Part shown: positions 9,302 to 9,956 of the stretch, piece after piece
How positions within the stretch are numbered: the first letter of the stretch is position 1
How the letters are laid out: each line of letters begins with the position of its first letter
Assembly (NCBI RefSeq): GCF_003018255.1
Contig: NZ_CP027440.1
From: Escherichia coli
GTDB lineage: Bacteria; Pseudomonadota; Gammaproteobacteria; Enterobacterales; Enterobacteriaceae
Direction: 5' to 3' (one strand)
Length of the DNA: 64,000 nt
Translations under genes and position numbers: made by a program
Notes under the pieces: model-generated
Database searches by the model: none
Told to the model about the DNA's origin: nothing
The model's input: only the letters and a program-made list of their open reading frames with translations

Positions 9302-9709
9302 TTATCTTTGCGTCTCTTGTTGCAACAATATCCGCCGTAAATCCCGCCATTCGGCTTCGTCCATGCTGTCGGCTGCCAGCCATAAATGTTGCCGTTTACC
9401 GCTGTCAGAACGTAAACGCAGCATCATGCCGCTCTTAATCATCCACGGCGCTTTGACGATGCTCCACTCCTGCCCTTGCCAGCGCAAACGCCCGTCCATC
9501 AACAGGCGAATTTCCCCCTGGCGAGCATTAATGCGCCGCTGGCTGCGAACGCAATCAAACACCACCAGCGAAAGTAACACCATCCATAACGGGGTGTAAC
9601 TGAGCGGCCAGGGCATGAGTAAAATAACAGCGGCAACCAGCCCGTGGATCAGCAAGGAAAGCCACTGTGCGCGCCAGGAGACGCGCAGATCAGATTGCCA
9701 CAGGACCAC
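9302..9709 (-). CDS. cptA: Inner-membrane toxin CptA (YgfX), 135 aa
   Basis: ORF 9302-9709; two predicted TM helices; immediately downstream of sdhE and overlapping it by 20 nt. Confidence 0.8.
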
Positions 9710-9956
9710 GTTCCCGGTTCCGTGTCTGGATGAGTCGGACCATCATTTCCAGTTCTGCATCGGCCGGTTTACCGTGGTTCATCAGCCAGTTAAACAGATC
9801 GGGATCGTCACACTCCAGCAGACGAATAAAGATGCGTTTTTCGTCATCGCTTAAGCTGTCGTACTCATGTTCGAAAAACGGCATGATTGAAATATCGAGT
9901 TCGCGCATACCACGGCGGCATGCCCAATGAATGCGGGCTTTGTTGTTAATGTCCAT
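9690..9956 (-). CDS. sdhE: FAD assembly factor SdhE (YgfY/CptB), 88 aa
   Basis: ORF 9690-9956; conserved RGMRELD motif near the N-terminus. Confidence 0.85.

Follow-up and report, generated by a model that had tools for sequence, protein, structure and literature searches.

The sdhE-ygfX (cptB-cptA) gene pair of Escherichia coli: a core chromosomal operon with a disputed toxin label

The window, a stretch of 64,000 nucleotides of Escherichia coli DNA, carries on its minus strand the chromosomal sdhE-ygfX (cptB-cptA) operon, an already known and ordinary locus of this species (Table 1). RefSeq labels the two genes 'ygfX: protein YgfX' and 'sdhE: FAD assembly factor SdhE', and 'protein YgfX' is the current name in both RefSeq and the K-12 annotation. 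A preliminary description of the sequence had named the pair cptA/sdhE (YgfX/YgfY) and staked the identification on alignment of the translated proteins with those of K-12. This identification holds: the window SdhE is identical to SdhE of E. coli K-12 MG1655 (b2897) at 88 of 88 residues, and the window YgfX agrees with K-12 YgfX (b2896) at 134 of 135, with G103S as the sole difference. The lengths of 88 and 135 amino acids, the shared orientation and the overlap of 20 nt that were given in the same place match the list of open reading frames to the base. At the DNA level the region is 97.5% identical to K-12 over about 7 kb, and the two genes together differ from their K-12 counterparts at 16 nucleotides, 15 of which are synonymous. 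The K-12 locus is the same one, with the same 20-nt overlap and the same neighbours; the single allele difference, G103S in YgfX, is conservative, and nothing differs functionally. The 103S allele is also found in other E. coli-like database sequences, for example P0007 and P0009. Antisense open reading frames at the pair are without support, and the substitution pattern agrees with the minus-strand frames.

Table 1. Positions in the window of the sdhE-ygfX genes, their elements and one neighbouring hairpin
Feature	Position	Strand	Description and source
sdhE (ygfY, cptB) CDS	9690..9956	-	88 aa, ATG start; ORF list
ygfX (cptA) CDS	9302..9709	-	135 aa, GTG start, inner-membrane protein; ORF list; RefSeq 'protein YgfX'
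Overlap of sdhE 3' end and ygfX 5' end	9690..9709	-	20 nt; ORF list and sequence
AGGAAG, putative Shine-Dalgarno-like element	9960..9965	-	4-9 nt upstream of the sdhE ATG; read off the sequence
RGxxE motif codons of SdhE	9900..9914	-	R15-G16-M17-R18-E19; read off the translation
YgfX TM helix 1, about residues 14-32	9614..9670	-	Kyte-Doolittle mean 2.04; AlphaFold2 helix 11-30, pLDDT >95
YgfX TM helix 2, about residues 36-54	9548..9604	-	Kyte-Doolittle mean 1.76; AlphaFold2 helix 35-61
YgfX cytoplasmic domain, residues 62-135	9305..9526	-	Predicted PH-like fold, six beta-strands and a C-terminal helix
Hairpin with 7-bp GC-rich outer stem TGACGGC/GCCGTCA	9269..9298	.	In the 39-nt convergent fldB/ygfX spacer; RNA fold

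SdhE matches the Pfam family PF03937 (Sdh5) with an E-value of 5e-26 and scores 90.8 bits there, where the cut-off is 27; with the NCBIfam equivalog NF008130 for SdhE it reaches 198.4 bits (cut-off 120) over residues 1-88 of 88. A sequence search of the PDB returned three chains, 1x6i_A, 6c12_D and 6b58_B, that are 100% identical to the window protein; 6c12_D bears the name 'FAD assembly factor SdhE', and 6b58_B is the SdhE chain of the FrdA-SdhE intermediate (PMC5773532). Through this identity to crystallised chains, the helical-bundle fold that binds SdhA and FrdA is assigned to the window protein. The RGxxE motif is kept, in the form RRGM[LKR]E, by each of the seven SdhE proteins whose sequences were obtained by translating diverged loci. 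In the crystal structure G16 of SdhE touches the FAD-ligating His44 of FrdA, the RGxxE motif is needed for flavinylation, and both apo-SdhA and apo-FrdA are bound by SdhE (PMC5773532). An E. coli mutant deleted for ygfY is viable, and its phenotype is purely one of succinate dehydrogenase: it has no SDH activity and fails to grow on succinate (PMC5293155). By every testable feature of its sequence, then, the window protein is a member of the SdhE/SDHAF2 family, and its role in flavinylation rests on the literature for the identical protein. SdhE, a small protein of five helices, uses its RGxxE surface to bind SdhA and FrdA as apo-flavoprotein subunits and promotes the covalent attachment of FAD to the active-site histidine, giving active succinate dehydrogenase and fumarate reductase; for this very protein the biochemistry is established. 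The fold, the RGxxE motif and the covalent attachment of FAD to SdhA/FrdA are common to the window protein and the SDHAF2/Sdh5/SdhE family (PF03937), which is broader, with ygfX standing behind the gene only in a gammaproteobacteria-centred subset.

YgfX matches PF07254, a Pfam family named Cpta_toxin, with an E-value of 1e-49 (168.5 bits against a cut-off of 27.3), and the match spans residues 2-131 of the protein and positions 1-132 of the 133 in the profile. With this full-length match, the transmembrane (TM) helices and the place of the gene directly after sdhE, YgfX is a member of the family. No model was found for it in the NCBIfam scan, searches of the PDB were empty whether a single sequence or a profile was used, and the Pfam scan of 49 family members returned PF07254 only. 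The GTG codon is the most upstream start possible in the ygfX frame, and the next in-frame methionine is M32, a start at which would delete the first membrane helix. The N-terminus is conserved as xxWQxxLRxS across 49 homologues, with S10 present in at least 90% of them, and the annotated GTG start is therefore sound. A mis-annotated or chance reading frame lying over the end of a real sdhE would be in keeping with the weak purine run ahead of the GTG and with the empty NCBIfam result, and is already refuted by other evidence, so that its probability is close to nil. Besides the strength of the Pfam match, 11 of the 12 nucleotide differences between the window ygfX and that of K-12 are synonymous, full-length homologues with a conserved N-terminus extend down to 23% identity, the AlphaFold model is of high confidence (mean pLDDT 95.9), and the protein has been detected in an E. 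coli pull-down (PMC11997395).

The two TM helices noted earlier for YgfX appear both as hydropathy segments and in the AlphaFold2 model, for which a 49-sequence alignment served as input; they are joined by the 5-residue loop WPLSY. The model orders the chain as a strand (residues 3-7), the two long helices (11-30 and 35-61), six strands (64-111) and a C-terminal helix (117-133). Residues from about 62 to 135 are predicted to form an anti-parallel beta-sandwich closed by the C-terminal alpha-helix, as in the PH-like superfold of PH, PTB, RanBD or EVH1 type, and the structural matches of the domain model are almost exclusively PH-like domains. PH-like domains are binding modules, not enzymes. 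From the sandwich, the closing helix and the PH-like matches, YgfX is therefore read as a TM hairpin followed by a putative cytoplasmic PH-like binding module. The short N-terminal strand possibly completes the PH-like sheet in the model. The positive-inside rule places the C-terminal domain in the cytoplasm, and the basic charge of residues 56-135 (16 K+R against 10 D+E) fits this placement. The AlphaFold2 fold gives no sign of an enzyme or a pore. Other membrane-anchored PH-like proteins to which YgfX may be compared are the bacterial bPH proteins YdbS/YdbT and the eukaryotic EROS/CYBC1; the Pfam scan of the 49 members and the PDB profile search detected no sequence similarity between these and YgfX. 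YgfX and pleckstrin are named together in no paper of the searched literature. This fold assignment and the survey of overlap conservation given below are the only mildly new items at the locus.

At the junction of the two genes, the ygfX GTG straddles sdhE codons 83 and 84, and the ygfX frame is +1 relative to that of sdhE. Upstream of the GTG there is only a weak GGGAA purine run. With the start codon 20 nt inside sdhE and so weak a purine run before it, translation of ygfX probably depends on that of sdhE and stays below it; in the proposed mechanism it would be coupled to sdhE and kept at a lower level. RNA structure near the GTG was considered as a coupling device, and the fold there is unremarkable (z -0.54). 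Coupled expression of sdhE and ygfX, which the preliminary description had derived from the overlap, is a reasonable inference from the sequence.

The same 20-nt overlap is found in K-12, in Klebsiella pneumoniae and in three diverged loci, and the overlap in four other loci is 19-26 nt. These diverged loci come from eight YgfX relatives, 23-39% identical to the E. coli protein, whose contigs were inspected. Seven of the eight lie directly downstream of a gene of the Sdh5 family, with called overlaps of 20, 26, 19, 20, 20, 26 and 23 nt. ygfX also follows directly downstream of sdhE in Klebsiella, Proteus and Aeromonas. The two genes are separated in Proteus mirabilis (L011, NZ_OL790812.1) by a 307-nt AT-rich spacer at 2103-2409, in Aeromonas caviae by a spacer of 25 nt and in Shewanella oneidensis by one of 37 bp (PMC8621075). 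Neither a convincing open reading frame nor an Rfam match was found in the 307-nt spacer of Proteus. A universal overlap is rejected on account of these three spacers; together with the adjacency seen in diverged genomes they show that adjacency and gene order are ancient, and that the overlap is frequent and not universal. The exception among the eight relatives, L005, is a PF07254 protein (P0242) encoded at 1322-1759 of a JGI 3300013771 contig, after a beta-ketoacyl synthase gene and without an adjoining sdhE. This contig is just 2.3 kb long, so that the genome may well carry an sdhE outside it.

SdhE-YgfX fusion proteins of 166-217 aa also occur in the databases (P0003, P0004, P0006, P0007, P0009, P0012, P0013 and P0021). 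A programmed frameshift was considered for them and rejected, as they form clusters of one or two sequences and their junctions differ. The junctions lie at SdhE residues of about 28, 48, 60, 72, 84, 86 and 88, which corresponds to window positions 9690-9760. The fusions are as expected if the overlapping frames were merged sporadically, by indels or by errors of assembly.

The neighbourhood of the pair reads recJ-dsbC-xerD-fldB><ygfX-sdhE<>ygfZ-trhA, with a divergent spacer of 242 nt between sdhE and ygfZ. A consensus promoter scan of positions 9150-10300 found no sigma-70 consensus site. By eye, a TACAAT hexamer was seen at 9992-9997 on the minus strand, 35 nt upstream of the sdhE ATG, a possible -10 element without a good -35. 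A terminator scan of the same interval gave one terminator-like match, located inside ygfX, and no more such matches than were obtained in shuffled sequences. The hairpin in the convergent fldB/ygfX spacer was not flagged by the consensus terminator scan. It is followed by a T-rich run on the plus strand only, and so is terminator-like for fldB; on the sdhE-ygfX side it is without a U-tract. The Rfam scan of 8500-11500 returned sub-threshold matches only, all of them outside the pair.

The distribution of the pair is that of a core chromosomal locus. A 1-kb query round the pair matched 5425 of 5426 complete E. coli genomes with 90-100% identity, in a median of one copy and on the chromosome. 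One of the 5426 genomes was without a locus match, and one had a second copy on a plasmid-typed record. The gene order is common to K-12, Klebsiella and the window, and it reaches much further: two of the diverged loci (L008 and L009) keep the E. coli order ygfZ, sdhE, ygfX, fldB, xerD, dsbC, recJ, with trhA in L009 only. In these same two loci YgfX is 28-29% identical to the E. coli protein and SdhE about 71%. An exhaustive HMMER search of 1.84 billion representatives found 135 clusters (50% identity) of the YgfX family at E <= 1e-3, and SdhE is known from alpha-, beta- and gamma-proteobacteria as well as from mitochondria (PMC5042078).

Matches outside chromosomes are very few. Plasmid records matched in 13 of 72,556 cases, and at least 8 of these 13 are chromosome-sized or 0.69-0.79 Mb long. 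Several of the PLSDB records concerned (H11-H13, H19, H21-H23) are 4-5 Mb in size and are evidently chromosomes labelled plasmid, from E. coli, K. pneumoniae, Proteus and Aeromonas; raw counts of 'plasmid' matches for chromosomal genes are therefore inflated. Among 50,697 phage records two matched, namely a contig from a Salmonella genome and a fragment of 1.5 kb. The pair is thus essentially absent from real plasmids and phages. The PADLOC defence models gave no match for it. Patchy occurrence, frequent multiple copies, mobility and a toxin at least as conserved as its antitoxin are typical, though not strictly defining, of toxin-antitoxin (TA) modules, and the pair does not show this pattern.

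The preliminary description had further stated that the pair is on record as a TA system in which the antitoxin doubles as succinate dehydrogenase's flavinylation factor, and such a description does exist in the literature. According to later papers that cite it (PMC8621075, PMC3985639, PMC10790755), Masuda 2012 reported that induced YgfX led in E. coli to growth arrest, lemon-shaped cells and binding to FtsZ and MreB, and that YgfY counteracted it. The TA description goes back to this one over-expression study in E. coli and has been carried on in TA reviews and surveys (PMC10790755). For Acinetobacter, too, there is a report of a homologous pair acting as a TA system (PMC8132199). In Serratia, sdhE and ygfX were found to be co-transcribed and YgfX to interact with SdhE (PMC5042078), and the same group (the Fineran laboratory) did not detect a TA phenotype (PMC3985639). 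In Shewanella, deletion of ygfY and the double deletion of ygfYX caused the same defect, with no rescue; Shewanella YgfX over-expressed in E. coli was neither specifically toxic nor morphogenic; no binding of YgfX to FtsZ or MreB and no interaction of YgfY with YgfX were found; and YgfY/YgfX of this organism fail the criteria of a TA system (PMC8621075). On the functional criteria, therefore, the literature conflicts, and 'toxin' is a disputed historical label. A caveat to the viable ygfY knockout of E. coli is that the scar left in Keio mutants retains only some 21 nt at the 3' end, and expression of ygfX in that mutant may thereby be altered. Small membrane proteins are often non-specifically toxic when over-expressed. 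The term 'membrane toxin' that had been applied to YgfX is contested by the negative results in Serratia and Shewanella, by the viable ygfY knockout of E. coli and by the current annotation as 'protein YgfX'.

It is unlikely that the pair is a genuine type IV TA module, CptB-CptA, in which YgfX would block polymerisation of FtsZ and MreB and hence division, SdhE would neutralise it and the two would form a stress-responsive growth brake. The observations of Masuda 2012, as cited in later papers, were made on the E. coli proteins themselves, and TA reviews and surveys repeat them; the family bears the name Cpta_toxin in Pfam; two small bicistronic genes with the 'antitoxin' first resemble a TA operon; and the claim for Acinetobacter is similar (PMC8132199). 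Against this stand the genomic features of the pair, which is core, single-copy, syntenic and off mobile elements. Its 'antitoxin' is about 71% and its 'toxin' about 28% identical to the E. coli protein in the same genomes, the antitoxin has an independent role in enzyme assembly, and the range of SdhE from alpha-, beta- and gamma-proteobacteria to mitochondria is set against just 135 clusters of YgfX. The E. coli knockout of ygfY is viable (PMC5293155), and work on Serratia (PMC3985639) and on Shewanella (PMC8621075) did not see the TA phenotype. The interaction of SdhE with YgfX in Serratia moreover contradicts the definition of type IV systems by non-interacting partners (PMC3985639). A toxic effect of YgfX, as is often the case with small membrane proteins in excess, may also be non-specific.

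The defining type IV TA system is CbtA-CbeA (YeeV-YeeU); its toxin CbtA is soluble, is encoded by genes of cryptic prophages and has the paralogues YkfI and YpjF. Inhibition of FtsZ and MreB polymerisation and lemon-shaped cells were reported by one laboratory for CbtA and YgfX alike, according to the papers that cite this work (PMC8621075, PMC3985639). YgfX, by comparison, is a single-copy membrane protein of the core genome that is unrelated to CbtA in sequence and in fold, and it is paired with an assembly factor of housekeeping function.

The reading that is considered probable is that of a vertically inherited housekeeping operon, with YgfX in the part of an accessory partner of SdhE at the membrane, and not of a true TA module. 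It is favoured because the genomic behaviour of the pair is core, syntenic and non-mobile, SdhE is far more conserved than YgfX and has a wider range, and the fold predicted for YgfX is that of a binding module. YgfX would most likely be a two-helix hairpin in the inner membrane with a cytoplasmic PH-like domain, serving SdhE as a non-enzymatic tether or modulator. The growth arrest and the inhibition of FtsZ/MreB from which the name CptA derives would most likely be an effect of over-expression and not a physiological TA activity. Several points weigh against this housekeeping reading. Masuda 2012 is not known to have been retracted, and no study of E. coli K-12 is known to contradict it directly; the TA report for Acinetobacter (PMC8132199) also stands; and core and syntenic status alone does not exclude TA behaviour. 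Against a tether in particular, deletion of ygfX in Serratia had no discernible effect on swimming motility, unlike deletion of sdhE (PMC5042078).

A detailed proposal for the function of YgfX is possible but more doubtful. YgfX may be a membrane-anchored PH-like adaptor, and not a toxin, to which SdhE docks at the inner membrane; flavinylation of SdhA and FrdA would then be spatially coupled to assembly on the membrane subunits. The TM hairpin would be inserted after strand 1 of the PH-like sheet, ahead of its other elements, and the frequently conserved overlap of 19-26 nt would set a fixed, low ratio of YgfX to SdhE.

A dual use of the module has also been weighed, in which SdhE would hold a YgfX sensor inactive until it is titrated by apo-SdhA or apo-FrdA or is depleted, whereupon free YgfX would slow division and so link the assembly of respiratory complexes to the cell cycle. 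Such a scheme would reconcile the interaction of SdhE with YgfX (PMC3985639) with the effects on FtsZ and MreB reported earlier, as they are cited in PMC8621075; the conserved adjacency and the frequent overlap of 19-26 nt fit a fixed stoichiometry, and a PH-like domain is a plausible platform for protein binding. It is entirely speculative, and a division phenotype of sdhE mutants is not reported (PMC8621075, PMC5293155). The overlap, too, is lost in Proteus (307 nt), Aeromonas (25 nt) and Shewanella (37 bp). A dual use is ranked as very improbable, behind even the type IV module.

For annotation, the name 'CptA toxin' rests on one over-expression study and is contradicted by later work in relatives and by the genomic behaviour described here, so that automated TA counts that include the pair are probably inflated by one. 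YgfX, whose function is still listed as unknown, is predicted with high confidence to combine a TM hairpin with a PH-like domain, and this offers a concrete hypothesis, open to experiment, of a binding module. As a match in a sequence scan the locus matters little, being a textbook-annotated part of the E. coli core genome. Beyond the pair itself, the spacer between ygfZ and trhA (window 11180-11255) is 76 nt long here and 195 nt in K-12. BLAST shows about 90 extra bases in the K-12 spacer, flanked by a 29-nt repeat, and a sub-threshold Rfam match to the REP-derived naRNA4 was obtained at 11166-11239 of the window. The difference in this spacer is probably copy-number variation of REP/BIME elements.
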